Source: Candidatus Muiribacteriota bacterium (GTDB lineage Bacteria > Muiribacteriota > DAOVTB01). Taken from it: 64,000 nucleotides of DNA. The stretch spans positions 7,258 to 71,257 of the forward strand of contig DAOVTB010000001.1 in assembly GCA_030633305.1 (NCBI GenBank). Reading direction: 5' to 3'. Of this stretch, positions 2,434 to 39,385 are shown piece after piece. The position numbers and the translations under genes are program-made. Within the stretch, counting starts at the first letter, position 1. Every line of letters starts with the position of its first letter. A model generated the notes under the pieces. It did no database searches. It saw only the letters and a program-made list of their open reading frames with translations, and was not told the DNA's origin.

Positions 2434-2636
2434 CTGGACAGGCACTGGCATGCTGTGTCGCAATACACTTCTATACAATATTTGGTGAAAACAACTTATC
2501 TGGCACAGGGGTCAAAGCAACTTTCATGAACTTGGATTTCAAGTTCACAAAAGCTCTGACCCCATCTATATTGGTATTTAGCATTATTTATTTCCAGTTT
2601 TTATTTATTTTTTTCCTTCGTGCCCTTCGTGGTCCA
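2434..2636 (+). repeat. Intergenic structured repeat, copy A (GC-rich hairpin region + about 56-nt stem-loop module + ATCTATATTGGTATTT + TTCGTG x2)
   Basis: About 80% identical over about 130 nt to copy B at 30664-30856. The outer helix is GGGGTCA (2508-2514) / TGACCCC (2557-2563), enclosing an inner hairpin ATGAACTTG...CAAGTTCAC. It ends with two TTCGTG motifs 9 bp apart (2617-2631). Confidence 0.55.
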
Positions 2637-2868
2637 ATTTTTTCTTTTTTTTTCTTTCTTATCTTTATTTATATCATAACCTGCTTTTGAATTAGATGAA
2701 GATTGGATTTTTCAAGTCAATTTATGCTGAGGTGTACTCTTTTCGTACTCCGAAGCATAAATTGGCGCAGAAAAATTCAAGCTTCGCTAATTCAGAACGC
2801 AGGTTATGTCGATATTATAAGATGTAACATAGAAATTGTAAACAAAAAGATGAAATTCGGAGGGGTTT

Positions 2869-3018
2869 ATGTACTGTCCTAGTTGTGGTCAAAAAAATTT
2901 ATATAATCAAAGATTCTGTAATAATTGTGGTTATTATCTAAAAGATACTATCCAGTTTGATTTCTCAAAACTACAGGAAAAAAGATTCAAGAATAAAAGA
3001 CTTTTCAAATTAAGTTAA
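2869..3018 (+). CDS. Small zinc-ribbon protein (49 aa, CxxC...CxxC), not in the ORF track
   Basis: ATG at 2869 is preceded by GGAGGGG (2859-2865). The translation MYCPSCGQKNLYNQRFCNNCGYYLKDTIQFDFSKLQEKRFKNKRLFKLS has two CxxC pairs. It lies in an otherwise intergenic stretch. Confidence 0.35.
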   Translation: MYCPSCGQKNLYNQRFCNNCGYYLKDTIQFDFSKLQEKRFKNKRLFKLS

Positions 3019-3030
3019 TTACTACCTGAA

Positions 3031-4344
3031 CTACATTTCAGGTGGCATTATAATCTTTTCTGTCAGTCCTGGATGATCAAAAATTGTTTTTCCAGTAATA
3101 TCAAAACCTTGTGAATCCATTATTGCAGGATTCACAATGGCTTTAACTGATTTTCCGAATTCCTTTTCTATTTTTTTTAATGTTTCGTATATATCCATAA
3201 ACGAAAATAAACCATAGCAATAAATATTTCCGCCAAAAGTCCTGTTTTCAGGAACAAAAATATTGTTGTATCTCTTTTTAAAGGCTTTTTCTGCGAATCG
3301 GGAAACAAAAATAACTGTTTCTGGTTCCGTTTCAACATATTCATCAATCCATTTAAGCATCCTATTACTGACACCAGGTCGAATTATGGGTTTTTCATCA
3401 TCAGATAAAAAAATCTGATCTACGAGAACTCCATCTTTTGTTTGTATAGATATATAATTCGCCTCGCTATCTATATAGTTTTTTATTACTTCAGTTCCAC
3501 AAATTACGTTTTTTCCATTTACAGCCTTTATAATATCTCCCGGTTGAATTCTACCAGTTGAGTTTTCTACTCCTTCAACATATGCTGCAAAGTCTTCAAT
3601 ATAATAAGGTTCCATAATAATGGGAAAGCCACAATCTTTTCTGTAAACATTGATCTTTGATGAAATTTCATGCTGAATTTTATCAAATTGTGAAACTGTA
3701 ATTTTAAATCGATTCATGCTTTCAGATGATAATCCAGCAAAAAATATCCTCACAGTTTTCCTGTATTTTTCCATACACTCAAGCAATTGAAAAATTGATT
3801 CCTTTTCTTCGCCCATGTTTTCAAATACTCGTGGAAAAATAACTGCACTGACTGTATAATCAATATTTTCAGTATCCAACAGCGCAAGAATGCTTCTCCC
3901 CGGTCTGGTTCCTTTCAAATAACGGGCGCGTTCCTCAAAATCAATGCAATTAATTGATACTGTCAGGGAGATATTCCCAATATTTGAAAGTATCTGTAAA
4001 CTTTTTTCTGTTAGAAGTTCACCGTTTGTAGTTATCTTAATATGCATTTCAGGATACTTATTACGTAATTTTTCCAGCAGTTCAAATATTGACAGATACA
4101 GGAAAGGTTCTCCTTCAAAATAACGTGTTGCTGACTCTCCAATCACTAGCGGTTTAACTGGATCAATAAATTCACAGGCAACCATTAATTCATCAACTGT
4201 ACGTTCCTTTACACGCAATACAGGAAATCCGCTATTCTGCTTATTCGAACAAAATATACAGGAAAGATTACATCTGGATGTAAGCGGAAGAGTATTAGAA
4301 CCGGATATACTTTTTAACAAATAATCCCATTCATTCAGCTTCAA
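3031..4344 (-). CDS. Radical SAM protein with an internal PDZ domain and a DUF512-like C-terminal region
   Basis: 437 aa. The CxxxCxxC motif (CNLSCIFC) is near the N-terminus. A PDZ-like segment follows (GRIQPGDIIKAVNGKNV). Confidence 0.7.
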   Translation of the reverse strand: MKLNEWDYLLKSISGSNTLPLTSRCNLSCIFCSNKQNSGFPVLRVKERTVDELMVACEFIDPVKPLVIGESATRYFEGEPFLYLSIFELLEKLRNKYPEMHIKITTNGELLTEKSLQILSNIGNISLTVSINCIDFEERARYLKGTRPGRSILALLDTENIDYTVSAVIFPRVFENMGEEKESIFQLLECMEKYRKTVRIFFAGLSSESMNRFKITVSQFDKIQHEISSKINVYRKDCGFPIIMEPYYIEDFAAYVEGVENSTGRIQPGDIIKAVNGKNVICGTEVIKNYIDSEANYISIQTKDGVLVDQIFLSDDEKPIIRPGVSNRMLKWIDEYVETEPETVIFVSRFAEKAFKKRYNNIFVPENRTFGGNIYCYGLFSFMDIYETLKKIEKEFGKSVKAIVNPAIMDSQGFDITGKTIFDHPGLTEKIIMPPEM

Positions 4345-6061
4345 TTCTGGTGAATTCCATTATTGTTTCTTTGATTTGTGGGAAGGCCGAAAAGTCTATA
4401 TGTTCAAGGTTTTCAACAATTTCACTCTGAAGTTGCTTTGTTTCACCTAACTGATTTAAAGCTTCAAGATAATAATAAAAATATTTCGGATTCCTGGAAA
4501 TATCAAACAACCTGGTATAAACACGATAGGCTTCTTCCCACTCCGATTCTTTCAGTGCAATCACTCCTTCTTTTTCACCAGACTCAATAAGGTTTTGCTG
4601 AAGAAATTTAGGAATAGGTAAAAGCTTCATATGCATAATTTTATAGTAGAGATATAGAATATAAAAATTTCTATTATCTTCTTTATATGCAAGTTCAATG
4701 TATGAATAGGCTGTATTCAAACTATTTAAAGTATAAGATATCTTGGCAATGTAATAAGTAGGCGCAATCGATTTTGGAGAAATTTTCTTTGCACAAAAAA
4801 ACTGTTTTAATGATGCAAGAAGTCTTTTCTCCTTCAAAAGTTTCTTGCCATCCCTTATTGCTTCATCATAATTTTGAGTAATAGATTTATAACAATCTGA
4901 GGATTCCATCCATTCAATTATCTCCCCAAAGTCTATATCAAGTAAATCAGAACGCCCGTGAGAATTACTGATAAGCGTATCATATAACGTTATTATATCT
5001 GCAGGTTTCTCATCAAGAATACCCATTATTTTGATATAACCTTTCATTATTTCATTGTTATGCGGAAAAATTTGAGAGGCCTTTTTGAAACATTCCAGTG
5101 AATTTTTATGTTCTCCAGAAAGAAACAGGCTCATTCCAAGCGCATATGCATAATCTTCATCCCGAGTAAAAAGATCTTCTGTAAATATTTTTTCCAGTAT
5201 TTTACTGGCGACATCATACTTTTGCATCATAATGTATTCCAGAGAAAGAAAATAATTAAAAACATAATTATATGGTGCAAGACTGACTGATTTCTGGAAA
5301 CTTTCAAGTGCTTCATCATTTCTTGAACCAAGATTACTTATACATAGTCCCTGGAGAAAAAAGGCGTATGAATTTTCTGGTTCTTCTTTAAGATAATGTT
5401 CAAGATATACCAACGCTTTGCTATACAGTTTCAGACTTATAGCTACAGTAGCCAGTTCAAAATAATATCTGTGATTCCTAACGTATTCACTTTTTTGAAG
5501 AAATAATCGTGCATCTTCATTACAATTAACAGAAACACAAAATCTGGCAACAATTATTACAAGTCTATTAACTTCTTCGGGGGTGACACAATTGAAAAAT
5601 TTCAGGAATAACTCCCGTCCTTCTTCAGGACGCCCAAGAAAATATGCTGTTTCTGCTTTAGTTATCATAACTGAAGGATGGTTTCCAAAAAGCTCAACTG
5701 CCTGTGAAATATAATTTGCTGACTCTTTTCTATCTCCTCTAATAGATTCAATTATGGCAAGATCACATAGAAAATCAGGAGACTCTGTTTTTAAATGCCT
5801 GTTTTTCAATATAATCTCAGCAGCACCATCTATATCATCAATCCTGGTCAATGCAGTTGCATAAATTTCATAATTTACAAAAGATAATCTGTTTTCGTCA
5901 GTATCAAGCTTTTTAAAACAATCGACACTCCTGACATATTCTCCTGCCTTGTAATACAATCGCGCCAGTTCTTCCATAATAATCAAACGATTATCAGAAA
6001 ACTCAAGCTGTTTTTCCAGGGCAATTATTTTATCAATATACAGAAACTTGTTAGTTTTCAT
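4331..6061 (-). CDS. TPR-repeat protein
   Basis: 576 aa with repeated 34-residue helical TPR-like units (e.g. AYALGMSLFLSGEHKNSLECFKKASQIFPHN) and no signal peptide. Confidence 0.55.
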   Translation of the reverse strand: MKTNKFLYIDKIIALEKQLEFSDNRLIIMEELARLYYKAGEYVRSVDCFKKLDTDENRLSFVNYEIYATALTRIDDIDGAAEIILKNRHLKTESPDFLCDLAIIESIRGDRKESANYISQAVELFGNHPSVMITKAETAYFLGRPEEGRELFLKFFNCVTPEEVNRLVIIVARFCVSVNCNEDARLFLQKSEYVRNHRYYFELATVAISLKLYSKALVYLEHYLKEEPENSYAFFLQGLCISNLGSRNDEALESFQKSVSLAPYNYVFNYFLSLEYIMMQKYDVASKILEKIFTEDLFTRDEDYAYALGMSLFLSGEHKNSLECFKKASQIFPHNNEIMKGYIKIMGILDEKPADIITLYDTLISNSHGRSDLLDIDFGEIIEWMESSDCYKSITQNYDEAIRDGKKLLKEKRLLASLKQFFCAKKISPKSIAPTYYIAKISYTLNSLNTAYSYIELAYKEDNRNFYILYLYYKIMHMKLLPIPKFLQQNLIESGEKEGVIALKESEWEEAYRVYTRLFDISRNPKYFYYYLEALNQLGETKQLQSEIVENLEHIDFSAFPQIKETIMEFTRIEAE

Positions 6062-6067
6062 TTTTTT

Positions 6068-6634
6068 TTATACTACATCCTCTTCTACATCGTTTTCATC
6101 ATTAACCACAAGAGCATCTTCAGGAACAATTATAAGATCATCTACAAGTGCTTTCAAATATTCCAGCTTTTCTTTTTCAGATTCATTCATATCAGAATAA
6201 TGTTCATCATAAATTTCAAGAATTGCTTTCTTTATATTTCCAAGCCGGTCTTTCATGCTACCTTGCATTCCATTCAGGCTTACTGCGATCTCTGTTAAAA
6301 AGTCTCCCTTTCTAAGTTTTATATTATGGCTCAGATCCCCATTCCCAATACGATCCATTTCGATTTCCAATCTATATATAGGTCCAGCAATCTTATGAGT
6401 AAAGGTAAGCGGAAAACCAATTATTATACTGACATTAATAATCACCATGACAAACATTGCTATAGTTTTTAACTTGGGATTATTTACAATTCTTGTACCT
6501 AAAAAGAAATTATTTTTAATCAATATGACATCTGCCCCTACCATCACCAGTATTATGACAGCAATCATAATTAACAGCAGAAAAATTTTTAACTGAAGTT
6601 TTTTCTTTACAAAATATTGACTTCTTCTACCCAT
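6068..6634 (-). CDS. Membrane protein with two TM helices and a HAMP domain (stand-alone HAMP)
   Basis: 188 aa. There are two hydrophobic segments, then IAGPIYRLEIEMDRIGNGDLSHNIKLRKGDFLTEIAVSLNGM, typical of HAMP, and an acidic tail. Confidence 0.5.
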   Translation of the reverse strand: MGRRSQYFVKKKLQLKIFLLLIMIAVIILVMVGADVILIKNNFFLGTRIVNNPKLKTIAMFVMVIINVSIIIGFPLTFTHKIAGPIYRLEIEMDRIGNGDLSHNIKLRKGDFLTEIAVSLNGMQGSMKDRLGNIKKAILEIYDEHYSDMNESEKEKLEYLKALVDDLIIVPEDALVVNDENDVEEDVV

Positions 6635-6647
6635 CGGTTTCTCCTTA

Positions 6648-8189
6648 CTAAGATTTTAAACCATATATTTCAACTGCTTGAGATCGTCCTTTAACCTGAA
6701 CACTCTCAAGAAACTCACATTCAAACGAATCTGCAATTTCATCATAAGTTCCATTACTTATAATTATATTGCTTTCATATGATCTGGTCAAACTTTCCAA
6801 TCTGCTTGCTACATTAACTGCATCTCCAATAACAGTATACTCCAATCTTTCAGAACTTCCAATATTTCCAACGATCATCTCGCCAGTATTGATTCCAACT
6901 CCCATTTCAAACCCATTGAAATCACCTTCCTGATCCTTAAATATCTCATTAAGTTCTGTAATAAGTTCCTGCATCGCAAGTGCTGCCTCAACTGCTTTTT
7001 CCGCATGATTAGGAACAAACACAGGGGCCCCCCAAAAGGCCATGACAGCATCACCCATAAATTTATCAATTGTTCCACCAGTTTCCAAAATCACGTTCGT
7101 AATCGCATCAAGATATTCGTTCAGGCAGGAAATAACTTTTTCTGGAGGATTCTTCTCAGAGAAAGAAGTAAATCCCTTTATATCGCTAAATAAAACAGTC
7201 ATTTTCCTGATTTCACCACCTAACTTAACACTGTTAGGATTGTCCATTATAGTTTCTACCAGACTTGAAGATGTGTACTTTCCAAACATTTCCTTCAATT
7301 TCAGCTTCATTTCCCTTTCCTGATCTGAAATTTTCTTAGTTGAGACAAGATCTTTCTTTGTAAGATCAAGGAGTTGAGCATTTTTTAAAACGACTCCAAG
7401 AACAGCACCAACAGAGATAATTATCTGTTTTTCTTCAGTGCTTATTTCTTTCTTTTCAGGATCTATAAATTCTTCTATAGAAATAACACCTACAACTTTC
7501 TTCCTGCTTACAATGGAAAATAAAACTTCAAAATTGATAGGACATCTTTTCAACAGTTGCAGGACTTCAATATCTGATTTTTGATCGCTTTTACACAATA
7601 CTCCGCTGTTCAGTGCAATATACCCGAGTGCATCATCTTCACTTATCGCGAAGGTAAGATTTGGGACCGAAAACAATTCATACGAATCCATCCCGTTTTC
7701 GTCTAATTCATGTCGGAATCCTCTGACGCAGTATATATCCCCTTCTTTTTCATCATTCAAGAAAAAATAACCACTTCTAGCATTTGCTGATTTTGAAATA
7801 ATTTCTGCAACAACCTTGAATATCTCGTTTTCGTCAAGTGAACTGGCTAGCTCTCTAAACCTGTAAATAATAGAATTCATACGAACCATTTTCTGAGTAA
7901 ACTCGATTTTTGACTTCCGTTCAAGTTCCATTAGTTCTTTTTCACGAATTTGAAAATATTTATCCTGAGAAGCCTTATCTCCAGAAATCACATTACCAGA
8001 TGTCTTTTTCTCTAATTCCGACAGCTTTTTATTTAATTTATTATTGTACAGCTTCAAAATTAAAAACATAACTGCATTTACAACGAGAATTATTATAACA
8101 AACGTATTTATTGCTGAATCCAGGAGTAATTGTTTATAAATATCTATATCTAATATCTTATTGACCATACAATAGTGCCTGAGTATCAA
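6648..8189 (-). CDS. Class III adenylate/guanylate cyclase with an N-terminal TM and sensor region
   Basis: 513 aa. The C-terminal catalytic domain has FSDIKGFTSFSEK, FMGDAVMAFWGAP and GINTGEMIVGNIGS...YTVIGDAVNVASRLE. The true start may be the internal Met MVNK. Confidence 0.8.
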   Translation of the reverse strand: MILRHYCMVNKILDIDIYKQLLLDSAINTFVIIILVVNAVMFLILKLYNNKLNKKLSELEKKTSGNVISGDKASQDKYFQIREKELMELERKSKIEFTQKMVRMNSIIYRFRELASSLDENEIFKVVAEIISKSANARSGYFFLNDEKEGDIYCVRGFRHELDENGMDSYELFSVPNLTFAISEDDALGYIALNSGVLCKSDQKSDIEVLQLLKRCPINFEVLFSIVSRKKVVGVISIEEFIDPEKKEISTEEKQIIISVGAVLGVVLKNAQLLDLTKKDLVSTKKISDQEREMKLKLKEMFGKYTSSSLVETIMDNPNSVKLGGEIRKMTVLFSDIKGFTSFSEKNPPEKVISCLNEYLDAITNVILETGGTIDKFMGDAVMAFWGAPVFVPNHAEKAVEAALAMQELITELNEIFKDQEGDFNGFEMGVGINTGEMIVGNIGSSERLEYTVIGDAVNVASRLESLTRSYESNIIISNGTYDEIADSFECEFLESVQVKGRSQAVEIYGLKS

Positions 8190-10363: not shown

Positions 10364-10400
10364 CTTTGTGAATTATAACATATGTCAGTTGATCTTAAAA

Positions 10401-10436: not shown

Positions 10437-10454
10437 GTTTATATTTAGATTATT

Positions 10455-11966: not shown

Positions 11967-12989
11967 ATGCACTTATTAAAATTTTCTTTTCTTTTCTTAT
12001 TTTTTTTATTTATTTCCTGTCATGTGTATACTTCAGAAATTAACATCAAACAAGTTTTGATTCCTTCTATTAGAATCAAAAACACTCTAAAAAAAGGATT
12101 AAATTCAATTTTCTGTGATGGAAATGACCTTTGGCTCGGAACAAATCAGGGTATCGTTAAATTTGATGGCAAAAACTGGCTTCATTATTATGGTGATGAT
12201 CATTCTTTTATCGATGGAAAACCAGTTCAAAACAAGGGAAACTCGCCTTTTAAAGATAATCATGTCAATAATATTCTCAAATCCGAAAAGAAAATATTCT
12301 TTTTAACTGATTTCGGAATTATTGAATACAATTCCGAAAATTTTAAATTTGTTCATCATACAGGTTCACTCAAACACTCTCTTTATCTGAACGAGGCAAT
12401 CATGCTTGATCCTAATACAATCCTTCTGGGAACATGGGGAAAAGGTCTGGCTTTGTTTAAAACAGATACTTCTACATTTAAGCCTGCCGAACCGAATATT
12501 CCTGGAAAAGTGACTTATGTTACCGGTATCACTTCAAATTTGAAGACCATATGGATTTCCACTTTAACAAATGGAATATACAGTAGCAATTCCAATGAAG
12601 ATAGATTCTTTTCCTATACTACAAAAAACAGTAAACTGGAAAGTAATCGTTCAAAAGGAATTACTTCATTCAATAATGATATTTTTCTTATAACTTCAAA
12701 TGGCCTTTTACGTTTAACCCCAAAAGACTTTATCTGGTATTATTTCAAAAAACAAAACTCAAGTTTGACCAATGAAAATATTACTTGCTTATGCATTGGC
12801 GAAAATGGTCTCATGTATATTGGTACACTCAAAGGACTTTACTCTTATAGTAAATCTGGGCTACTCATAAAAGTAGCAAACAGAGAAATCGATAATACAT
12901 GGATCAGTAATTTGGCAGCCAGTAAAGATTCGCTTTGGATTACGACTAAACAGGGTGAACTTTATAAAATGGATTTATCTGGTAAATAA
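11967..12989 (+). CDS. Secreted beta-propeller-like protein (two-component-regulator-propeller-like repeats)
   Basis: 340 aa with a signal peptide. It has repeated LW(L/I)GT.xG(I/L) motifs (LWLGTNQGIVKFDG, LLGTWGKGLALF, IWISTLTNGIY, LWITTKQGELYKMD). Confidence 0.45.
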   Translation: MHLLKFSFLFLFFLFISCHVYTSEINIKQVLIPSIRIKNTLKKGLNSIFCDGNDLWLGTNQGIVKFDGKNWLHYYGDDHSFIDGKPVQNKGNSPFKDNHVNNILKSEKKIFFLTDFGIIEYNSENFKFVHHTGSLKHSLYLNEAIMLDPNTILLGTWGKGLALFKTDTSTFKPAEPNIPGKVTYVTGITSNLKTIWISTLTNGIYSSNSNEDRFFSYTTKNSKLESNRSKGITSFNNDIFLITSNGLLRLTPKDFIWYYFKKQNSSLTNENITCLCIGENGLMYIGTLKGLYSYSKSGLLIKVANREIDNTWISNLAASKDSLWITTKQGELYKMDLSGK

Positions 12990-13132
12990 ACCAAGGGCGA
13001 ACACAAGCAGACTGTGTCATAATTAAAAAAATAAAAAAGATCTCGCGCAGAGAACGCTGAGGACACAGAGAACATTATAATAATAAAAAATAAACAGAAC
13101 ATGATTATACTGTGACCTAAAAGTATTGTATT

Positions 13133-13192
13133 GGACAGGCACAGGGGCCTGTCCCTACAGTGTTTCGCTTTTTTTCTTCGTGTTCTTCGTGG
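13133..13192 (+). repeat. Short copy of the GC-hairpin repeat (GGACAGG/CCTGTCC) + T-run + TTCGTG x2. Possible bidirectional terminator between the convergent genes
   Basis: Stem 13133-13139/13148-13154 with loop CACAGGGG, then CTACAGTGTTTCGCTTTTTTT, then TTCGTG at 13177 and 13186 (9-bp period). It lies between the stop of the + gene (12989) and the tkt stop (13214). Confidence 0.4.
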
Positions 13193-26728: not shown

Positions 26729-27006
26729 AATATCAAATCCACATACGCACTGTACCCAGCGTCTCTAGATGGCCTCATTTCTAATACAAGGCCTGGACAC
26801 CGCAACGCATATCAATTTTGGAGAAAAAGCAAACCTAGTACATGAAGCATTCTCGAACTTGAATATAATATGCGACATCATGACGGGTCAGGGCACTGTG
26901 AATTTTTTTGAACTTCAAAGAAAATTAAAGTACTTCTGACCCAATCTATATTAGTATTTGATATAATTATTTGGAACTTTTTTTATTTCACTTCGTGTTC
27001 TTCGTG
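26729..27006 (+). repeat. Intergenic structured repeat, copy C (module 1 + module 2 + AATCTATATTAGTATTT + TTCGTG x2)
   Basis: Module 1 (26729-26815) shares CCTGGACACCGCAACGCATAT exactly with copy D. Module 2 has helix GGGTCAG (26885-26891) / CTGACCC (26936-26942). TTCGTG at 26992 and 27001 extend into the last codons of the lipoate-ligase gene. Confidence 0.5.
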
Positions 27007-27699
27007 GTAATAATGAATTTTTCCACCAAAGGATTCTGCAAATCCTTCGGTCAGTTTAGAAATAATCATACTTTCATTGTAATAAACAGGATCGAGAAGA
27101 TCATATAACGCAACTCTTTGATCGCGTGCAGATGGATCAGTTCCAAAAAGTTTACTTTCTGTCGTTTCATCAATTGTCAAAGGGATTGAGCCGTGCTGCA
27201 GAATATTTTTATTCCGTCGGCACTGGGCACTTCCAATAAGTTTTTTTCCACCAACAACAATTTCGGCAATACTAATTGACGAGAAACAACTGACTTTGGA
27301 ACTATACTTCCTTCCCGATTTTCTTCTATATATTTCTGCTTCAATTCCCATTTTTTCCATACCAGATAAAAGTCCCTCTGCAATCAGATTATAAAAATCA
27401 ATAAGTGAGTATTTTTTTTCAAAAATATCTTCACTACAACTGACCGCATAAGTTATATCATTACTGTGAAATACAGCTCGACCACCAGTTGGTCGTTTAA
27501 CAACATCAAGATCAGCAGGCCAATTAACGGGATGATGATTTTTTTGAAGATAACCAACAGTAACAGCCGGAGGATCAAATTTGTAAAATCTCAAATGGAT
27601 TCCAGTTCCACCAAATTCCATCATCTTCTGGTCATAGTTCATCTGAAAAGACGCATTTTTTTTATAATAGGGATGTAAAAACAGATCAAAAAAAGACAT
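26983..27699 (-). CDS. Lipoate-protein ligase / octanoyltransferase family protein (BPL_LplA_LipB domain)
   Basis: 238 aa with VKRPTGGRAVFHSNDITYAV, typical of the LplA/LipB catalytic domain. The C-terminal tail YYHEEHEVK is encoded by the TTCGTG-repeat segment. Confidence 0.6.
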   Translation of the reverse strand: MSFFDLFLHPYYKKNASFQMNYDQKMMEFGGTGIHLRFYKFDPPAVTVGYLQKNHHPVNWPADLDVVKRPTGGRAVFHSNDITYAVSCSEDIFEKKYSLIDFYNLIAEGLLSGMEKMGIEAEIYRRKSGRKYSSKVSCFSSISIAEIVVGGKKLIGSAQCRRNKNILQHGSIPLTIDETTESKLFGTDPSARDQRVALYDLLDPVYYNESMIISKLTEGFAESFGGKIHYYHEEHEVK

Positions 27700-28624
27700 T
27701 CTGCAAAACCCTCAGAAGTGAAAGATCTCGATTCAGGATATATACCCGATTTTTAGAACCCAGAAAAAGTTCTTTTGAACCTTTCCCATTAAAATCACTT
27801 ATAATGAAGGAATAAAAAAATGGATTGTTCAAAACATCACTTCTCGATAATTTAATCATCGAGAATAGTTTGGGAGGAGTTTCATCTGGATAAAGTATTT
27901 TCAGCCAGGATTTTTCTTCTTTTTCATCCAGAACAACATAATCTGAATTTTCAGGATCATTTTTTTTGAAATAGAATTTTCCCCGGCTCATGTAAAAATC
28001 ATAACCTGGAAGAAAGGGATTTTGTCTAACATCATAGGCTGCAATGGTCTGTGGTAAATAGATCAAGGATTCCTTTTTTTTAACTTGATTGCCATTGATA
28101 TCAAAAATAAACAACTCTTCCCCATAATTTGATACAAACACAAATTCTGGAATTGAATCGTAATTGATATCAAGAATAAATGGTCTGTATGTAAATTCGT
28201 CCTCTTCCCGTCTATATTCAAGCCGGTTTTTAAGTTTTATAGTTTTAAACAGAGTTCCGCGCCAGTCGTATATGAGAAACATCTGTTCTCTCTTTTCGCT
28301 TAATTTTGCCAGAAGAATCCTGAAATCCTTTTTCTTTTTTCCGAATTTGACAACTTCAATAAAAAATCCATTTGCCAGACTCCAACCTTTAAAACCATCA
28401 CTTGTGAAAATAGAGAATCTCCGTCCTCCCTTTTCAACAAAAACATATTCATTTTTTCCATCATGATTGAAATCAACGGGGATTATCCTTTCAATAATAC
28501 CCCGTCCAGAAATTTTCCTGTATTTATGTCTTTTTTTCAATAGTCTTTTAAAATCATCAGAAATTGGAAACAGAAAACTGCTTCCGAATATGATTATTAT
28601 TGTGAGTAATAGTATTTTTTTCAT
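27686..28624 (-). CDS. Secreted protein with FG-GAP-like repeats (start moved to internal MKKILLL)
   Basis: It has repeats of the D-x-N-x-D-G type (DFNHDGKNEYVFV, DINYDSIPEFVFV, DFNGKGSKELFLG). The ORF track start at 28672 has a non-hydrophobic 16-aa prefix. MKKILLLTIIIIFGSSFLF at 28624 looks like the signal peptide. Confidence 0.45.
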   Translation of the reverse strand: MKKILLLTIIIIFGSSFLFPISDDFKRLLKKRHKYRKISGRGIIERIIPVDFNHDGKNEYVFVEKGGRRFSIFTSDGFKGWSLANGFFIEVVKFGKKKKDFRILLAKLSEKREQMFLIYDWRGTLFKTIKLKNRLEYRREEDEFTYRPFILDINYDSIPEFVFVSNYGEELFIFDINGNQVKKKESLIYLPQTIAAYDVRQNPFLPGYDFYMSRGKFYFKKNDPENSDYVVLDEKEEKSWLKILYPDETPPKLFSMIKLSRSDVLNNPFFYSFIISDFNGKGSKELFLGSKNRVYILNRDLSLLRVLQNVFF

Positions 28625-28705
28625 ATAGGTGGTCAGGTCTTTAATCTTAAGATCTGCATCAGTGTTCCACAAGCAGTAATGCTAAAAACAGTCTTATATT
28701 AAATT

Positions 28706-28776
28706 CGGGCCGGCACGGGGACCGGCCCCTACTTTATTTTTTTTTTAATTCCTTCATGTTCTTCATGCTCTTCATG
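28706..28776 (+). repeat. Short copy of the GC-hairpin repeat (GGGCCGG/CCGGCCC) + T-run + TTCATG x3. Terminator-like on the + strand
   Basis: Stem 28706-28712/28721-28727 with loop CACGGGGA, then CTACTTTATTTTTTTTTT, then TTCATG at 28753, 28762 and 28771 (9-bp period). Confidence 0.45.
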
Positions 28777-30603: not shown

Positions 30604-30663
30604 TCCATTTATATTTTTCCTTTTAGAATTATTAATTATTAACCAATATTCTTTTTTTACTTC

Positions 30664-30856
30664 GGACGGGCACAGTCAGACCGTGTCGCAATATACTTCT
30701 ATATCAATTTTGAAGGAAACAACTAAGTTGGCGCAGGGGGCAAAGCAACTTTCATGAACACGAACATCGAGTTCACAAAAGTTCCATGTGACCCCATCTA
30801 TATTGATATTTAAAATTATTTAACATTTTTTCTTTGTGCCTTAGTGCCTTTGTGTG
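30664..30856 (+). repeat. Intergenic structured repeat, copy B
   Basis: About 80% identical to copy A over GTGTCGCAATA...ATCTATATTGATATTT. The helix is GGGGGCA (30736-30742) / TGACCCC (30789-30795) with one G-A mismatch. The inner hairpin is TGAAC-ACGAACATCGA-GTTCA. It is followed by degenerate TTTGTG/TTAGTG repeats (30833-30854). Confidence 0.55.
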
Positions 30857-32207: not shown

Positions 32208-33566
32208 CGTGTAAATATGTATCCCAAATCATGTTTATATACCTTAGAAGAAGTTTGAAAGACTTTGCATATGTAGACATACAAACCTCTAAACCATATT
32301 TACGAATTTTATGTATCGGTCGTGATGTACCCGTCCAGTAGAAGTCAAGATACGTCAACAAAATCTGAATATAAAACTGTGACGGTGTCATGTGATCAGG
32401 TCTTACAACCTGATGTGAAAAGTCCCATTTTACGTAATCCTTTTCATCAACAAAAATTCTGTCCTTCATCGTCTCATATTGTGGTGTTTTCCTAAAGGGA
32501 ATATAAGGCTGAATATTAACAAAATCAAATCGAGCTTTTTTTAGGAATCGTTTTAAATCAGAAAAATCCGTACGAGTCATATCAGGTTTTACAATTATGC
32601 TTGCAAAAAAATCGAGGTCATATTTTTTAAGAATTTCAGAAGCTTTAATTGCATCATCCGGAGTAAACGATTTTCCATATTCTTTCAAATCCTTTATTCG
32701 ATGTGATTCAACCCCTATTAAGAATCCCGTAAATCCAATTTCACTTAATTTTCTGATTATATCCTCATTTTCAAGAATAAAATCTATTCGAGCATAGGAA
32801 AGAAACCTCTTTTTAATCCCTGACTCCTTGATTTTTGTAATAAATTCTTCCAGTCGTGCCGGATTCATCAGAAAATTATCGTCAATAATGAAAATATTGG
32901 ATTCCTGAATTTCAGAAATTTCTTCAATGATTTCATCAATAGGAAGCAGAATAAGATGCCCACCACTTATTTGCCATCGAATACAGAACGAACATTTATA
33001 CGGACACCCATAAGAAGTCCTTAACAAGGCTGCTGGTTTTAAAAGAAAATAACTATAATGTTTTCGCCACCTCTGCGTACTTTCCCTTGTTGCCTTTAAT
33101 TTAAAGCATCCGTCTTTTTTTCAGGGAGATTAAAATCATACTTTCTGACTTCATCAATTTTCCCTTCACCAATAAGACTTATGACCTTATTAAAACTTAC
33201 CAGAGCAAATCTCTTAACCACAATGTCAATAAAAGGAGTTTCAAAATCCTCTGGACACCACTCCGCATGAATACCACCAACTAAAATATGAGTTTTGGGC
33301 GATATTCGCTTAATTTTTTCTGCCAGACCTTTTATAATATCAACATGGATTACATATCCGGAAAAGCAGACGATATCCACTTTTTTCAAATCTTCAATTA
33401 TCTTTTCAACAGGTGTTTTAACAATCTGGAAATCCACAATTATTACATTATGGTCTTTTTCCAGGACTGAATACAAGTATTCCAATTCAAAAGGTTCAGT
33501 AATATAGACATCTGAAAGTGAAACACATTTTTTTGGAGTAGCCGGTCTTATCAGAACAATATTCAT
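32200..33566 (-). pseudogene. B12-binding radical SAM gene disrupted by a frameshift (ORFs 33096-33566 and 32200-33120 overlap)
   Basis: The upstream ORF (B12-binding domain, 156 aa) stops at 33096. The radical-SAM frame (…WRKHYSYFLLKPAALLRTSYGCPYKCSFC…) is open from 33120. The two frames overlap by 25 nt, next to a 7-T homopolymer (33115-33121). This could be a genuine frameshift or a sequencing error. Confidence 0.5.
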
Positions 33567-33572
33567 ATAAAC

Positions 33573-34262
33573 CTATTTATTTTTTTTAATTTTAATCAAA
33601 CTTAAACTGGCTTTTTTCAAAATATCAGATAGTTCTTTTTTTAAACTCTTGGAAAGATTTCCTGTTTCAGGTATTATTTTTTGAAGATCAGACACTGCTT
33701 TTAAAAAATCTGAATCATTATCATCTTTTAAATCATTTTCATCAAAAAAAGGTACATTATCAATATCCAGAGCCTTCTTATTTTCCTCATTGAGATTATC
33801 CAGTTTTTTCTTGTTTAATATAGACCTGTCAATTCGAACTTTTCCAAGCCCCGGAACAATAGATTCCGGATAATCTGTCAAAGCTTTTTCCAATTCAGGA
33901 GTTACAGGAGTCATACTGGTGACTTTTCCATTTTCATTCATAATCGTAACATATACCTCATCACCCTTCTCAGGATAAAAATACAACATTCCTCCTTCGG
34001 AAGGTTTTCCTCCAGGAGAATAACAATATCCACTGATATTACTGAAAGCCTTATCCTTTCCATAAGACTTCCTCACTTTGAAAATAACATTTTTTTCAAT
34101 ATAAACATCGTTTGCACTGATTACTTTTACAGATACAACTGTTGCAATAACTTTAACTTTAGAATTTTCTATCTTTTCCTTATAATGATTTGGCCCTAAA
34201 ACCCCATAAACAGTTGAAACTATAAGAAATATGGCTAATGAAACTGTAATCAATTTAAACAT
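33573..34262 (-). CDS. Hypothetical secreted protein
   Basis: 229 aa with signal peptide MFKLITVSLAIFLIVSTVYG. The C-terminus is Lys/Asp-rich and low-complexity. Confidence 0.45.
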   Translation of the reverse strand: MFKLITVSLAIFLIVSTVYGVLGPNHYKEKIENSKVKVIATVVSVKVISANDVYIEKNVIFKVRKSYGKDKAFSNISGYCYSPGGKPSEGGMLYFYPEKGDEVYVTIMNENGKVTSMTPVTPELEKALTDYPESIVPGLGKVRIDRSILNKKKLDNLNEENKKALDIDNVPFFDENDLKDDNDSDFLKAVSDLQKIIPETGNLSKSLKKELSDILKKASLSLIKIKKNK

Positions 34263-34336
34263 ATCTATCGCTCCTTGAAAAAATTTAATTTTTTAGAATT
34301 TTACTATTACAACGGGATAAAGTCAATATTACGACT

Positions 34337-35431
34337 CTACTCAAATTTATCATAAAAGACACGATCAGATGGAATTCCTTTTTTATCAAAATATTCCATT
34401 ATCCCGTTTATCATCTTTGGAGCACCACACAGGTAAAACTCAGACTCAGATATCTTTTGAAAGTCATCTTCAAGAACCTTGGTTATTCTAGCGCGTTCAC
34501 CACTATCAAATGATTCTGTTTCCGGAATATCTGACACAACAAGCTTATATGAAAAATTGGCATATTTTTCTTTCCATTGAGATAGCTGTTCCAGATAATA
34601 AAACTCTTCTTCAAGTTTTACCTTAAAATATACAAGACATTTTCGATCAATGTTATCCTGAAAAATCTGATGGAGAATCGAGTTTATCGGTGCAAGACCT
34701 ACGCCACCCGCAACAAATACAGCCTGTCGATTGGAACCAGTCAATAAAAAATCACCATAGGGTCCTGATATATTTACAGTATCGCCAACCTTTAATTTAT
34801 GTAAATATGTCGAGCCAATACCTTTATCTTCCAATTTAATATTCAGGAACAATGATTTACAATTTCCAGGATGTGAGGATATTGAATAAGACCTGTATAC
34901 GGTTTCACCAACTGAAGGAACCATTACCTGTATATATTGACCCGCTTTAAACTCTATTGAATCTGGCTCAATCATTTCAAGTTCTATTTCCTTAATGTCA
35001 GCAGCAATGGTTTCGGTTTTAGCTACTCTGCAATGGAATTCCTTGATCATGAAATACTCTTCAGGCATCCATACAGACATATTTTTTTTTACTTTTATCT
35101 GACATGCTAATCTCCAACCGGCATTGACATCCTTTTCAGCCATGACAATCTCTTCGGTCGGAAGCAAAGGGATATCTTCATCAGGAAGCTTCACCATACA
35201 GTAACCACAAGTTCCTTTCCCACCGCAAGCCGAAGGAATAAAATATTTTTTTTCAAAAAGAGAACTCATTAAAGAATTACCACCTTCTACAACTACTTGC
35301 TTGTCATCATTAATGGTAATAGTACATTCGCCGTAATTAGATAATAACTTATCTGCAATAACTATAATCACTCCAAGTGCCGTTGATATTCCCAGGCTTA
35401 CCAGGAAAGTAGTTAAATATATTGACATCAC
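34337..35431 (-). CDS. nqrF: Na+-translocating NADH:quinone oxidoreductase subunit F (2Fe-2S ferredoxin + FAD/NAD oxidoreductase)
   Basis: 364 aa. N-terminal TM; ITINDD...SACGGKGTCGYCMVKL...LPTE...RLACQIKV matches the NqrF plant-type 2Fe-2S domain. The RSYS FAD motif and an FNR-like C-terminus are present. Confidence 0.85.
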   Translation of the reverse strand: MMSIYLTTFLVSLGISTALGVIIVIADKLLSNYGECTITINDDKQVVVEGGNSLMSSLFEKKYFIPSACGGKGTCGYCMVKLPDEDIPLLPTEEIVMAEKDVNAGWRLACQIKVKKNMSVWMPEEYFMIKEFHCRVAKTETIAADIKEIELEMIEPDSIEFKAGQYIQVMVPSVGETVYRSYSISSHPGNCKSLFLNIKLEDKGIGSTYLHKLKVGDTVNISGPYGDFLLTGSNRQAVFVAGGVGLAPINSILHQIFQDNIDRKCLVYFKVKLEEEFYYLEQLSQWKEKYANFSYKLVVSDIPETESFDSGERARITKVLEDDFQKISESEFYLCGAPKMINGIMEYFDKKGIPSDRVFYDKFE

Positions 35432-36012
35432 ATAACTCCTGCCAGACCTGTAAAAGCCATAGCCATTATGCCAGCTGTTATCATTGTTATTGCAGGACCT
35501 TCAAGACCTGGTGGTAATTTGGAAGTATTAATTCTTGAGCGAACACCACTCATTGCCAATAACGCTATTGCCCATCCCATTCCTGATCCAAAACCATAAC
35601 CCAGAGTATTCAAAAAGGAATATTTTCTCAATACCATAAATAAGCTGGCTCCGAGGATCGCACAGTTTACAGTAATCAGCGGAAGAAATATCCCCATAGC
35701 TGCATAAAGGACTGGCGAAACCCTGTCAATGAAAAGTTCAAGAATCTGTACAATAACGGCAATACTCGCTATAAAACATAGAAGTTGTAAATGTTCTGTC
35801 CCTGTAGGCACAAGAATCTGCCAGTAAATAATCCAATTAATACAACAGGTAACAGTCATAACAAAGACTACTGCCGCACCCATTCCAAAAGCGGTTGCTG
35901 GACTTTTTGACATTGCAATAAACGGACACATGCCGAGAAAATAAGTAAGAGCAATATTTCCTGTAAAAACTGCTGCAAAAGTAATTTTTAGAAAATCAGA
36001 AAAATCAGACAT
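35428..36012 (-). CDS. nqrE: NQR subunit E
   Basis: 194 aa. FLGMCPFIAMSK ... GIFLPLITVNCAILG ... GFGSGMGWAIALLAMSGVR ... LPPGLEGPAITMITAGIMAMAF closely matches NqrE. Confidence 0.85.
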   Translation of the reverse strand: MSDFSDFLKITFAAVFTGNIALTYFLGMCPFIAMSKSPATAFGMGAAVVFVMTVTCCINWIIYWQILVPTGTEHLQLLCFIASIAVIVQILELFIDRVSPVLYAAMGIFLPLITVNCAILGASLFMVLRKYSFLNTLGYGFGSGMGWAIALLAMSGVRSRINTSKLPPGLEGPAITMITAGIMAMAFTGLAGVM

Positions 36013-36647
36013 TACTTTTCCCTCCCGACTTCATCTACATTTACAGAAACTCTATGATACATCCAATATCTGGCAATCCAAACTACTATTCCCAGAGTAA
36101 AAAATGCTCCAGGAGCCATAATCATAATCATCATTCTAGGTACTTGTACAGGTATTATCAAATATCCAAGCAAAGTCCCAAAACCCAGCAATTCACGTAT
36201 CACGGAAATGAATATCAGGATGATGCCATATCCAATGGCAACGCCAGCTCCATCGATAATTGAAAGTATGACCTTGTTATTTGATGCAAAGGCCTCAGCT
36301 CTTCCCATTATTATACAGTTTGTAATAATCAATCCAACATAAGGGCCAAGAGCTTTACTTATATCAGGAAACATCGCTTTTAACAAAAGATCTACAACCA
36401 TTACAAACGTTGCTATAATGGTCACATAAACGACCATCCTGACTTTCTTGGGAATCCAGTCTCTGATAAGTGATATCAACGCAGAAGATGTAGCTGTTAC
36501 AAATATAACTGCCAAAGTCATTGTAAGTGTATTTATAACAGAATTAGTGACTGCAAGTGCAGAACATATACCAAGTATCATCTTGAAAATCGGATTTTCA
36601 TCAATAAGTCCGAATCTAAATGTTTCCCAGTACTTGTTTTTCTTCAT
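36012..36647 (-). CDS. nqrD: NQR subunit D (start moved to internal MKKNKY..., giving ATGA overlap with nqrC)
   Basis: ENPIFKMILGICSALAVT ... GLIITNCIIMGRAEAFA matches NqrD/RnfE. The ORF-track start at 36692 would overlap nqrC by 49 nt. Confidence 0.75.
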   Translation of the reverse strand: MKKNKYWETFRFGLIDENPIFKMILGICSALAVTNSVINTLTMTLAVIFVTATSSALISLIRDWIPKKVRMVVYVTIIATFVMVVDLLLKAMFPDISKALGPYVGLIITNCIIMGRAEAFASNNKVILSIIDGAGVAIGYGIILIFISVIRELLGFGTLLGYLIIPVQVPRMMIMIMAPGAFFTLGIVVWIARYWMYHRVSVNVDEVGREK

Positions 36648-37264
36648 TGAGCCATTCCTGAAGGATACTTCTTTTTTAGAGATGCAATACAATTCGAAAG
36701 TGATTCCTGTAGAAATTTACAAGTCATTGATGCACCTGTTATTCCATCAATTTCCATTTCAGTTTTCTTACTACGTCCAATAACGATTTGAGGATTACCC
36801 TTTTTGAGAGAAAAACCAGAAAACTGATCTGTAAACCATTTTTCTTCAATTCTCCCTCCAAGTCCAGGTGTCTCTTTTTGCTGTATGATCTGTAAACCAA
36901 GTAATTTGTCACATAAAAAAACATTCTTAATTAATCCAGGTCTTACACATATTACTGTATATATCTGATCCCACAAACCTGATCCTGAAAAAACAACTGC
37001 AGAAAATGATTCATCTCGAAAATCAATTATTTTAAAATCTTTGGATTCGATTATTTTACCTTTTGAGAAAAAATTCAGAAGTTCTTTTTCAGATGACATG
37101 TCTTTTAAATCTGCAGAAATACATATCTTTCTGGCTAATTCAATTTTATCATGATTATTTCTGATATCTTTTGTAGTTTCTGCAACCATAGTAAGCAGCA
37201 TTGAGCTAAAGGTCATAACAAGAACAAGGAAAAACAAAGATTTTATACCAGATGATTTCTTCAT
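36644..37264 (-). CDS. nqrC: NQR subunit C (FMN-binding)
   Basis: 206 aa. N-terminal TM. ETPGLGGRI and the FMN-attachment-like GITGASMT motif are present. Confidence 0.7.
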   Translation of the reverse strand: MKKSSGIKSLFFLVLVMTFSSMLLTMVAETTKDIRNNHDKIELARKICISADLKDMSSEKELLNFFSKGKIIESKDFKIIDFRDESFSAVVFSGSGLWDQIYTVICVRPGLIKNVFLCDKLLGLQIIQQKETPGLGGRIEEKWFTDQFSGFSLKKGNPQIVIGRSKKTEMEIDGITGASMTCKFLQESLSNCIASLKKKYPSGMAQ

Positions 37265-38232
37265 ATTTTCTCCTTATTTTTTATAAGCTTACCGGAAAAA
37301 TAAAGATCAAAAAGTGGTGAAAACATATTTACCAGAAGCAGGCTGAACATAAAGCCCTCAGGAAAGGTTGAAAAACTTCTTATAATCAGAACTAAAAAAC
37401 CCAGCATGACACCAGACAGGATCTGGCTTTTTTTCTGTCTCGGAGAGGTTACAGGATCTGTACAGAAAAGCGCAGCTCCGGCAAGTATACCACCAGTTGC
37501 CAATTGAAGATGAGGTGCAAGTATTACCGTTGGAGCAGCTAACCAGCCAACAAGCGAAAACACTGTCAATGAAATCAAGAACGCATATGAAAAAGTGAAT
37601 TTAGCTACTTTTTTGTATTGCATATATATTATTATCAGTATAAATAAAATTGCTGAAGTCTCACAAACAGATCCTCCACATTTTCCAAGCAGTGAATCAA
37701 TAAAATCTGGCGTAGTTCCCGTTGCGCGAAAAGACATCAACGGTGTCGCCCCGGTAGCAACGTCAGTTACCCACGAAGAAAGTCCGCCATAAATACTTTG
37801 TGGAAGTTTCCAGTTAGATGTAAAATACAAAGGAAACGCAAGAGTAATAAATACTCGACCGACAATGGCAGGATTAAACATATTTGCTCCGAAACCACCA
37901 AAAACTTCCTTTGCAAAAAACTGTCCAAATGCAGCAGCAATCACAACTGCAACAAGTGGTAAATGCACTGGTAAACAAAAAGATGTAAGAATCCCTGTTA
38001 TCCAGAAGCTCTGATCCATCCTAAGGCCTCTTGCAATAGAAAAAGAAAGGGCTACAAGAAAGGAACCCAGCCAACCGCACAATGTCATTGCAATTACCTT
38101 ATAACCAAAGACTAAAGTGCCAAATACCATTACCAGAAAAATTACAGGAAGTAATTTTTTATATAATGGATTCAACGGTTTTCCGTCTTGATAAAAAGGT
38201 GATAACAGTATAGGATGTTTTATTTTCAACAT
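37261..38232 (-). CDS. nqrB: NqrB/RnfD-family membrane subunit (short, 323 aa)
   Basis: Polytopic membrane protein with TGATPLMS (FMN-Thr motif region) and GGSVCETSAILF. It is shorter than canonical NqrB (about 410 aa), closer to RnfD size. Confidence 0.65.
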   Translation of the reverse strand: MLKIKHPILLSPFYQDGKPLNPLYKKLLPVIFLVMVFGTLVFGYKVIAMTLCGWLGSFLVALSFSIARGLRMDQSFWITGILTSFCLPVHLPLVAVVIAAAFGQFFAKEVFGGFGANMFNPAIVGRVFITLAFPLYFTSNWKLPQSIYGGLSSWVTDVATGATPLMSFRATGTTPDFIDSLLGKCGGSVCETSAILFILIIIYMQYKKVAKFTFSYAFLISLTVFSLVGWLAAPTVILAPHLQLATGGILAGAALFCTDPVTSPRQKKSQILSGVMLGFLVLIIRSFSTFPEGFMFSLLLVNMFSPLFDLYFSGKLIKNKEKI

Positions 38233-38308
38233 ATTATATTCTCAATAAAATTTCAGATATGCAGTATATCAGTTTGATATCTATATTTCAAACTGTTAAT
38301 CCAAATCA

Positions 38309-38346
38309 CCGACAAAAAGAAAATCCTCCCGAACTAGGAGAGGATT
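38309..38346 (-). terminator. Possible intrinsic terminator (AATCCTC / GAGGATT hairpin followed by a T-rich tract on the minus strand)
   Basis: Stem 38322-38328/38340-38346 with an 11-nt loop. On the minus strand it is followed by TTCTTTTTGTCGG. Confidence 0.3.
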
Positions 38347-38496
38347 GAGTATGAGGATCGTTTTAACCAAAAAACCTTATACTCATATATCGTCATTAAA
38401 AACTTAAACTTTAGCCTGAATAATGTTAAAAATAAAATAAAAAAATAATATAATCTGGGCTGATTGATTATTTGGAATTCAAATGTGTTTGAATAA

Positions 38497-38670
38497 GGTT
38501 ATACCTGAGTTGAGCGATTCTTTGAAAGCATCTGCACAAATCTCTTTGCCACTAAGATTTTCCAAAAAGCCTCGACGTACCCGTGGGGTATGCCTACATT
38601 TTTTGAAAAACTTATTGTCTAAAGATATTTGTATATCTGAATTCCAAAGAATCGCTCAGCTCAGGTTATA
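38497..38670. mobile_element. MITE-like element: 27-bp near-perfect terminal inverted repeats flanking about 120 bp
   Basis: Left arm GGTTATACCTGAGTTGAGCGATTCTTTG (38497-38524). Right arm CAAAGAATCGCTCAGCTCAGGTTATA (38645-38670), 25/27 complementary. The right arm overlaps the stop of gene 38666-39145. The 62-aa ORF inside (38483-38671) is probably spurious. Confidence 0.4.
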
Positions 38671-39145
38671 GTTTGATTTTTTCAAGCCATTTTATGACAT
38701 CATCAGTTAAAACCCTGTTCGTACTGATTATGGCTAGATTTAAACTTATGATTTCAGGAAATTTACGTACTTCTATAATCCTGTTTGGACTGGATAATTT
38801 CCGAACCCAGTGATCTTTTTTTAATTCTTCATCAAAGAAAAAAATAACAAGCTCAATCTTTCCAGCAGCGGGAAATCTGTTCACCGGACTAAGATTCCAT
38901 TTTTTCTTTATCCAACAATCACGCAGATTTTCTCCATTTGCATACATATTACTTAAATAACTTTGATGATCTTCTACAACTCCAAGTTCAGGATAATTCC
39001 TTTCAAGTTCCCTGTTAAGGGCATGCTCGATCAAATACATGGTCTTTAAACAAGTAGATTCAAATTTATTTGGTAATTTTCCATAACCATGAAAAATACA
39101 GATATTTAAAATTACTAAAACAAAAAATATTCGTTTAATATTCAT
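38666..39145 (-). CDS. Hypothetical secreted protein
   Basis: 159 aa with signal peptide MNIKRIFFVLVILNICIFHGYG. Confidence 0.45.
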   Translation of the reverse strand: MNIKRIFFVLVILNICIFHGYGKLPNKFESTCLKTMYLIEHALNRELERNYPELGVVEDHQSYLSNMYANGENLRDCWIKKKWNLSPVNRFPAAGKIELVIFFFDEELKKDHWVRKLSSPNRIIEVRKFPEIISLNLAIISTNRVLTDDVIKWLEKIKL

Positions 39146-39187
39146 ATTATGTAATAATACACTTTAAATATTGAATTTTCAAGAGTA

Positions 39188-39385
39188 ATATGCGTTGCGG
39201 TGTCCAGGTCTCATTTGAGGAATGAAATCCAACGCGAGACACTGGCACCGTACAGTCAGTATGCGGATTTGATATTAATGCCGGTGCCAGATGGAACTTT
39301 TGTTCAACGCTACTTAAATTGAATACTTGGTTGAATGCAAAGTTGCCCTGGCACCTTATACCCATATCGGACCCCTGTGCCAGAT
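39188..39385 (-). repeat. Intergenic structured repeat, copy D (reverse orientation; module 2 then module 1)
   Basis: Reverse complement: ATCTGGCACAGGGGTC... (as in copy A) with helix GGTGCCAG/CTGGCACC and inner hairpin TTCAAC...GTTGAA (covarying with TGAAC...GTTCA of A/B). Then ATATCAAATCCGCATAC...CCTGGACACCGCAACGCATAT, matching module 1 of copy C. ORF 39147-39365 is probably spurious. Confidence 0.5.

Follow-up and report, generated by a model that had tools for sequence, protein, structure and literature searches.

A modular family of hairpin-forming repeats in a cold-seep Muiribacteriota bacterium is probably mobile or formerly mobile

We examined 64,000 nt of DNA from Candidatus Muiribacteriota bacterium (contig DAOVTB010000001.1 of assembly GCA_030633305.1; hereafter the window, to whose positions coordinates refer unless another contig is named), in which a reading of the sequence alone had noted GC-rich repeats at six intergenic sites. 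These repeats probably constitute a lineage-specific, recently expanded family of modular, hairpin-forming, non-autonomous elements that are, or once were, mobile. The sequence-only reading had proposed either a selected RNA structure or a miniature mobile element. The mobile element is favored over a conserved regulatory RNA because copy A of the family is a clean 205-bp insertion that is absent from two sister lineages, and it draws further support from dispersed copies that are 75-87% identical, from shuffled and tandem modules and from the decay of one module, module 2. The selected RNA structure was not supported as stated: the copies show no conserved gene association and no consistent position relative to promoters, and one of them is antisense to its neighbors.

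Copy A, whose unit boundary we corrected to 2434-2638, is built as follows.

2434-2638, minus strand: complete inserted unit, 205 bp, the exact block being missing in L121 and L124 (BLAST); on the minus strand it reads TTGGAC, two 9-mers, an A-rich spacer, AATATAGAT, the module-1 hairpin, CCCCTGTGCCAGAT, an AT-rich spacer and a terminal hairpin with the GTCCAG end, with A6 runs at both ends
2614-2631, minus strand: tandem 9-mers CACGAAGGG CACGAAGGA at the 5' end of the unit
2508-2563, minus strand: long module-1 hairpin, GGGGTCAGAGC...GCTTTGACCCC, with an inner 13-bp helix and the loop AAATC
2434-2461, minus strand: terminal GC-rich hairpin, GCGACACAGCATGCCAGTGCCTGTCCAG on the minus strand, homologous to 30664-30692

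The decisive comparison was made at the orthologous site in related lineages, since the presence of an empty site separates a structured RNA from a mobile repeat. Downstream of copy A lies a PHP-family gene, and we compared contigs carrying its orthologues, which are 86% (L121), 79% (L123/L124) and 59% (L122) identical to it. All of these relatives keep the divergent zinc-ribbon gene (2869-3018, plus strand, 49 aa) and the promoter-like TTTACA-17-TATAAT (2842-2814, minus strand). L122 has no repeat at the site, and its PHP start codon lies 9 nt past the -10 box, which suggests that the PHP mRNA is leaderless in that lineage. In L121 and L123/L124, the site holds an older long-hairpin element only; the window holds that element plus exactly 2434-2638, inside an A-run. 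In BLAST alignments, the L121 locus accordingly matches window positions 12547-2639 and 2433-1, and the same block is missing in L124. The inserted block spans the 9-mers, module 1 and the terminal hairpin, is bordered by A6 on either side and contains only spurious open reading frames (ORFs). Copy A is an insertion polymorphism and not a conserved leader. A check for target-site duplication gave A6, the unit and A6 at the filled site, against A10 (L121) and A7 (L124) at the empty sites; these flanks could reflect a duplication of 5-6 bp or merely variation in the length of the A-run. The ends of copy A, TTGGAC...GTCCAG (5/6) plus GGCAC/GTGCC, are paired with each other in the minimum-energy RNA fold.

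The other sites bear out the description of a family. All six noted sites are present at their coordinates, related to one another, GC-rich and strongly hairpin-forming, and they stand out as islands in that the repeat-bearing intergenic regions reach 55-60% GC (40-nt windows) against ~32% window-wide. Five of the sites are read here on the minus strand and copy D on the plus strand, opposite to the orientations first given. The sequence statements made about the copies were otherwise correct, with the labels B and C swapped relative to the coordinate list that accompanied them: the helix GGGTCAG/CTGACCC and a shared 21-mer belong to 26729-27006, and TGAAC...GTTCA belongs to 30664-30856. Repeat searches aligned copy 2434 with copy 30664 at 75% identity over 142 nt (2415-2556 / 30643-30784), matched 26775-26820 with 39180-39225 in inverted orientation, and found a ATCTATATT tail and a CTTCGTG tail, each common to three copies. 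Compared with shuffles of the window, the exact 21-mer occurs twice (0 expected), GGCACAGGGG four times (0.48 expected) and CTTCRTGNNCTTCRTG, the doubled CTTCRTG motif, five times (1.0 expected). The covariance-model match of copy A (2498-2572) scored 81.7 bits; those of the remaining long copies are given with their features.

26729-27008, minus strand: second long copy ('C' by content), with 9-mers at 26989-27006, a B-type module-1 hairpin at 26885-26942 and module 2 at 26729-26816; covariance-model match 26875-26952, 77.5 bits
30664-30856, minus strand: third long copy, with the layout of copy A, namely degenerate 9-mers at 30832-30856, a module-1 hairpin at ~30736-30795 and a terminal hairpin at 30664-30692; covariance-model match 30726-30804, 94.8 bits
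39181-39385, plus strand: copy D, flipped relative to the other long copies and with reversed module order; module 2 at ~39181-39277, then a divergent module-1 hairpin, GGTGCCAG 39283-39290 / CTGGCACC 39348-39355, then CCCCTGTGCCAGAT at 39372-39385; no 9-mers, and GTGCCAGAT flanking module 1 on both sides; covariance-model match 39274-39363, 52.4 bits
13046-13191, both strands: short symmetric unit between convergent genes, with plus-strand 9-mers CGCAGAGAA CGCTGAGGA CACAGAGAA at 13046-13072 and, on the minus strand, a GTAG-headed hairpin at 13133-13158 (GTAG GGACAGG CCCCTGTG CCTGTCC) and 9-mers CACGAAGAA x2 at 13174-13191
28707-28776, minus strand: short unit S2, with CATGAAG 9-mers x3 at 28750-28776, an A-run and then the hairpin GTAG GGGCCGG TCCCCGTG CCGGCCC at 28707-28732

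The DNA of the organism itself that we examined amounts to ~85 kb (the window plus L001 and L135) and holds two GTAG hairpins and five module-1 copies. Searches for module 1 with a covariance model and nhmmer gave four copies in the window, one in the 8 kb that follow on the contig and four on L118-L120, and none in ~36 kb of sister-lineage DNA; 9-mer arrays were likewise absent from L121, L122 and L124. Unrelated loci, both within the window and on three metagenome contigs, host the copies that are 75-87% identical, and truncated and decaying copies exist. As possible empty sites for S2, the HD-gene relatives L129 and L130 were uninformative, synteny being broken there. A scan of genome contigs with CTTTTGT N{12,42} ATGMAAGTTGC, a pattern that proved too loose, returned more than 116 chance matches, none confirmed by nhmmer; scans of viral contigs gave only three chance matches (41-61% GC, no nhmmer match), and blastn found nothing similar in plasmid and phage collections. 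The earlier failure to place the repeats in a known RNA family held up, with 0 matches to Rfam 15 at gathering thresholds across the whole window and, in E-value scans of each copy, only sub-threshold miRNA-like noise on the long hairpins; ARAGORN found no tRNA or tmRNA genes in the window.

All copies draw on one building block, in which 2-3 tandem 9-mers (CACGAAGNN, CATGAAGNN or CGCWGAGNN) are followed by an A-rich spacer and a GC-rich hairpin headed GTAG in the short units or TAGAT in module 1. The hairpin may be short (~22 nt, the size of a repetitive extragenic palindrome, REP), module 1 (55-70 nt), module 2 (~60 nt) or a terminal hairpin. Blocks are joined head-to-tail in varying order and number, or face each other around a single hairpin; facing pairs of 9-mer arrays were found only at 13046-13191 and, in the same layout, at L135 1724-1880. 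Scanning the window for GTAG plus a hairpin gave two matches (13158 and 28732; 8-bp stems, 6-nt loops) against 0.25 expected, and such hairpins are also present on L118. Beside the plus-strand array of the 13046-13191 unit, and upstream of it, a small hairpin at 12999-13020 (GCGAACACAAGCAGACTGTGTC) followed by an A-run lies directly past the 11967..12989 stop codon and is similar to the terminal hairpins seen in copies 2434 and 30664.

Within module 1, the segments AGCAACTTTCAT and CAAAAGYTC, initially taken for conserved single strands, in fact pair with each other in both RNA and DNA folds, and module 1 is therefore one nearly continuous imperfect hairpin of ~25-30 bp; on the opposite strand, this pairing includes tandem U.G/G.U pairs. 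The proposed closing motif ATCTATATTRGTATTT is found in two copies, is replaced by ...GATATTT in the third and is missing from copy D. The alternative pairings suggested for copy D are available, as four CTGGCAC/GTGCCAG segments are present. Module 2 is a second hairpin that bears the 21-mer, which occurs exactly twice and, as had been noted, stands in opposite module order in the second long copy and copy D. This opposite order follows from a longer array: L118 carries a 1-2-1'-2 tandem, of which the second long copy is a 1'-2 slice and copy D a 2-1 slice.

We then evaluated the claim that the helices differ among copies and stay complementary, using an alignment of eight module-1 copies, four from the window and four from L118-L120, with 25 helix pairs. 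Helix cells paired in 91.5% of cases, compared with 79.7% for shuffled partners and 28-54% for slid controls. Changes on both sides occurred in 12 of the 25 pairs against 5.1 +/- 1.5 in shuffled alignments, a value reached in 0 of 500 shuffles, and they were significant in all three helices, placing the claimed complementarity above chance. L119 and L120 carry a T.C mismatch at a pair that is G-C or T-A elsewhere. In module 2, only 2 of 24 pairs had double changes and many pairs were broken, with a positive covariation term. Compensatory change alone does not show selection at the RNA level, because subfamilies of palindromic DNA repeats are documented to change their arms in the same compensating manner (Di Nocera 2013, PMC3733652).

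Folding by strand gave a divided result. The module-1 hairpin of copy A reached -34.2 kcal/mol as minus-strand RNA versus -26.7 on the opposite strand, and z = -6.6 as DNA; the whole unit A gave z = -3.8 for the sense RNA versus -2.4 for the antisense. In the two B-type copies and copy D, the other strand folded equally well or better, and as single-stranded DNA all tested units gave good folds for both strands. Strand asymmetry as proof of RNA was consequently set aside, the outcome being mixed, with five copies favoring one strand and three the other.

Several observations weigh against mobility. The covariation signal is strong; in the five A-type copies, the G.U-bearing strand has the better fold by 3-7 kcal/mol, a bias that matches expectation under RNA-level or single-strand selection; and the tandem U.G/G.U step is kept both in the A-type copies and in the divergent copy D. 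Seven of eight units lie on the same absolute strand (window minus), where most genes lie too. The copies do not all have a terminal inverted repeat or target-site duplication in common: the TTGGAC/GTCCAG ends were seen only in copy A and L135-1717, and neither the 30664 and 26729 copies nor copy D end in the terminal inverted repeats of copy A. No transposase gene was found in the window or in any of the other loci retrieved, the rest of the genome lying outside this search, and the empty-site evidence comes from one orthologous site, that of copy A. As for element ends, the inverted 9-mer arrays of the symmetric units may serve in that capacity.

The covariation and the G.U-bearing helix, together with the better folding of the sense strand in five of eight copies and the placement of most units in sense orientation directly past stop codons or ahead of start codons, argue for RNA-level selection of a structured RNA present in several copies, either a small RNA or a cis-acting processing site, stabilizer or protein-binding module in untranslated regions (UTRs), whose genes were duplicated or rode on mobile DNA. 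We nevertheless regard such an RNA as unlikely. Copy A is missing from the orthologous site of sister lineages, and the genes downstream of the copies are unrelated to one another (PHP, M48 peptidase, EamA and MBL), as are others adjoining them (ThrRS, phosphopantetheinyl transferase). Searches for promoters and terminators belonging to the units themselves turned up nothing convincing, both neighbors of the copy at L135 3749-3865, a short way beyond the window, are antisense to it, and module 2 is decaying. The strand preference is also not uniform, given the B-type and D copies and the folding of both strands as DNA, and the shared G.U pairs of the five A-type copies amount to roughly one observation because those copies are close relatives.

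The placement of the copies, described beforehand as lying at gene ends and in divergent regions in both orientations, was confirmed: copies A and D occupy divergent 5' regions, and the others lie just past stop codons. Copy A sits within the 5' UTR, between the conserved promoter and the ribosome-binding site of the PHP-family gene, and the second long copy lies upstream of a promoter-like TTGACT-17-TATATT (26723-26695). The CACGAAG 9-mer array contains the end (...YYHEEHEVK) of the lipoate-protein-ligase-like ORF 26983..27699, as expected after insertion at a gene end, and the final codons and stop codon of this ORF appear to come from the repeat.

With the strand opposite to that first proposed, a 5' leader or riboswitch was attractive, as all four long copies precede start codons in sense and TATAGAT plus GGGG resembled a -10 box followed by the start of an outer helix. 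Four findings led us to reject it: orthologous sites lack the element, the genes that follow the copies are unrelated, the second copy precedes a promoter, and the L135 copy is in antisense. Three further signals were rejected: a sigma-54 promoter (TGGCAC...TTGC), whose spacing is wrong in every copy; a sigma-70 promoter internal to copy A (TTCACA-17-TATATT, plus strand), whose spacing is not conserved in other copies; and intrinsic terminators, none of which lies on the sense strand, S2 alone being flagged, in antisense.

In our preferred interpretation, the family would have spread by insertion into A/T-rich intergenic DNA, and the folded hairpin would be the feature that matters for propagation, possibly through recognition of single-stranded DNA by an enzyme acting in trans or through homogenization of palindromes. 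Propagation by way of the hairpin may have given rise to subfamilies with different but complementary arms. An inserted copy would become part of the flanking transcript and be passively co-transcribed, and any effects on mRNA stability, termination or translation would be side effects.

There is a low probability that the family represents an undescribed composite element, in which the 9-mers would be iteron-like subterminal sites and the GTAG/TAGAT hairpins single-strand structures for a Y1/HUH-type enzyme, or that module 1, whose tandem U.G/G.U helix is invariant, is a selected RNA cassette supplying structured UTRs. The bias of seven of eight units to the G-rich, lagging-strand-template strand would fit the Y1/HUH version. 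Plus-strand GC skew is negative throughout 1-47000, and ~80% of the genes are on the minus strand, from which we conclude that the minus strand is probably the leading strand in this part of the window, which confounds tests of how the repeats are oriented. Transcription- and replication-linked causes of the orientation bias are inseparable, because the minus strand is G-rich and also carries most genes.

The positions of arrays and hairpins that begin 10-40 nt past stop codons (13174, 28750, 30832, 26989 and L120 1147) raise the question of whether host-recruited, REP-like elements at transcript 3' ends, protecting against exonucleases, terminating transcription or blocking antisense read-through, are kept by selection rather than by transposition. 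The S2 hairpin with its T-run is terminator-like on the plus strand, and REPs have been reported to follow upstream ORFs closely at the 3' end, with a presumed action as RNA (PMC3733652). We consider this role quite unlikely for the family: there is no canonical terminator on the sense strand, the T-run being on the wrong side, copies A and D are in divergent 5' regions, and sister lineages do without the element at the copy A site. Neither an RNA function nor a 3'-end role is needed to explain the data. It is very improbable that the tandem 9-mers are DNA-level, iteron-like sites for a nucleoid protein or regulator with the hairpins incidental. In favor of such sites, the window has five arrays (0.7 expected) with strict 9-bp periodicity, uniform within an array, different between arrays and at a fixed distance upstream of the hairpins. 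Against them, a 9-bp period does not hold one helix face, and the arrays belong to the inserted block, are lacking from copy D and the L135-3749 copy, and define no apparent common regulon.

Known mosaic repeats provide the closest parallels to a mobile family of this kind. GTAG-tagged REPs and their clusters, bacterial interspersed mosaic elements (BIMEs), are thought to be mobilized by RAYT/TnpA-REP Y1 transposases; they typically number more than 100 copies per genome, with an associated RAYT/Y1 (HUH) transposase gene flanked by repeats. The motif GGGGWSAS (TIRYT motif) has been reported at inverted repeats flanking some Y1-transposase genes; it fits the foot of module 1 and is not enriched in the window (3 versus 2.8 expected). 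A GTAG-tagged REP is an imperfect palindrome of 20-40 bp with a GC-rich stem of 6-13 bp and an unpaired GTAG at one end (PMC3733652), a form that we found only in the short units (13133-13158, 28707-28732 and twice on L118). These units are GC-rich palindromes with 7-8-bp stems, unpaired GTAG and G-T pairs; their stems differ and stay complementary (GGACAGG/CCTGTCC versus GGGCCGG/CCGGCCC), and they lie directly past stop codons, clustered with other repeats. In contrast, the long modules measure 55-70 nt and are headed by TAGAT, the hairpins are preceded by tandem 9-mers and an A-run, a layout undescribed for REPs, and the modules on L118 run head-to-tail on one strand, whereas BIMEs alternate in orientation with conserved linkers.

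In modular behavior, the closest known system by analogy is the BOX element of Streptococcus pneumoniae (boxA-boxB(n)-boxC), which likewise consists of non-coding, intergenic repeats resembling miniature inverted-repeat transposable elements (MITEs), variable in length, with stable hairpins and a few module types in variable number, and which is co-transcribed with neighboring genes (Delihas 2011, PMC3184786). The two differ in that they have no sequence relation, that the host here is an uncultured cold-seep bacterium and that the grammar is one of 9-mers, spacer and hairpin. MITEs such as Correia/CREE, ERIC and RUP are similar in being small (about 65-280 bp), non-coding, long-hairpin-forming and dispersed between genes (PMC3184786), and in their presence or absence between related genomes, as for copy A in L121, L122 and L123/L124; they are defined by terminal inverted repeats and a target-site duplication, which our family does not show consistently. 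Integron attC sites share the conservation of structure beyond sequence and a position directly past stop codons; they were rejected on a reading of the sequence, as only the inner arms of copy D fit RYYYAAC/GTTRRRY, no integrase was found, and the intervening genes are multi-gene housekeeping operons (Rnf/Nqr, pilin processing, transketolase) and not cassettes. We read the repeats as a new mosaic family that behaves like REP/BIME, BOX and MITE elements, with an unusual grammar in which a 9-mer array and an A-run lead up to a tagged hairpin.

Such a family cautions against reading compensatory-looking changes as a structured RNA, for which they are insufficient because palindromic mobile repeats give the same signal. 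It has also remodeled UTRs. Through two successive insertions, the PHP gene went from near-leaderless to carrying a structured leader of ~400 nt, and the C-terminus of the lipoate-ligase-like ORF appears to have been rewritten. A recently expanded mosaic repeat family is thereby documented in an uncultured cold-seep bacterium (South China Sea Site-F, as indicated by the MAG GCA_023144555.1, the ZHAN22-2 scaffolds and PMC9357000); its repeats are useful as strain markers and flag likely break sites in metagenome assemblies. Should a mobilizing enzyme be identified, a new mode of element-end recognition could come to light from the 9-mer arrays.

The older element at the copy A site is a member of another repeat family, unrelated to the first, whose copies are long imperfect hairpins (120-150 nt) that have ACCTGC...GCAGGT as inverted ends; they are present at 2681-2829 and 38515-38665, at L121 9789-9930 and 18086-18207, in L123/L124, at L118 ~1037-1153 and at L119 109-214 and 485-610. 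Since the 86% and 79% sister lineages have it too, we consider this second family older than the one described above. The element at 2681-2829 has TA on both sides and the empty site in L122 a single TA, so that it looks like a classical MITE with TA target duplication; its stems vary among copies with compensating changes, and Rfam gave only sub-threshold miRNA-like matches. A 61-nt direct repeat, 85% identical, at 40947-41007 (start of a STAS-domain gene) and 46984-47044 (intergenic, upstream of 47159..48322) bears no relation to the main family. Two samples of one population are told apart by an in-frame length polymorphism of ~132 bp in the FG-GAP-like gene 27686..28672 (44 codons; window 28405-28444 versus L126 4433-4526; 312 aa versus 356 aa), which looks like a tandem duplication. 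Finally, a diverged inverted duplication, 51599-56838 versus 59551-63950, comprises a TPR protein and a HEAT-repeat protein (about 1,080-1,105 aa), its arms being ~70% complementary over 524, 258 and 103 nt.

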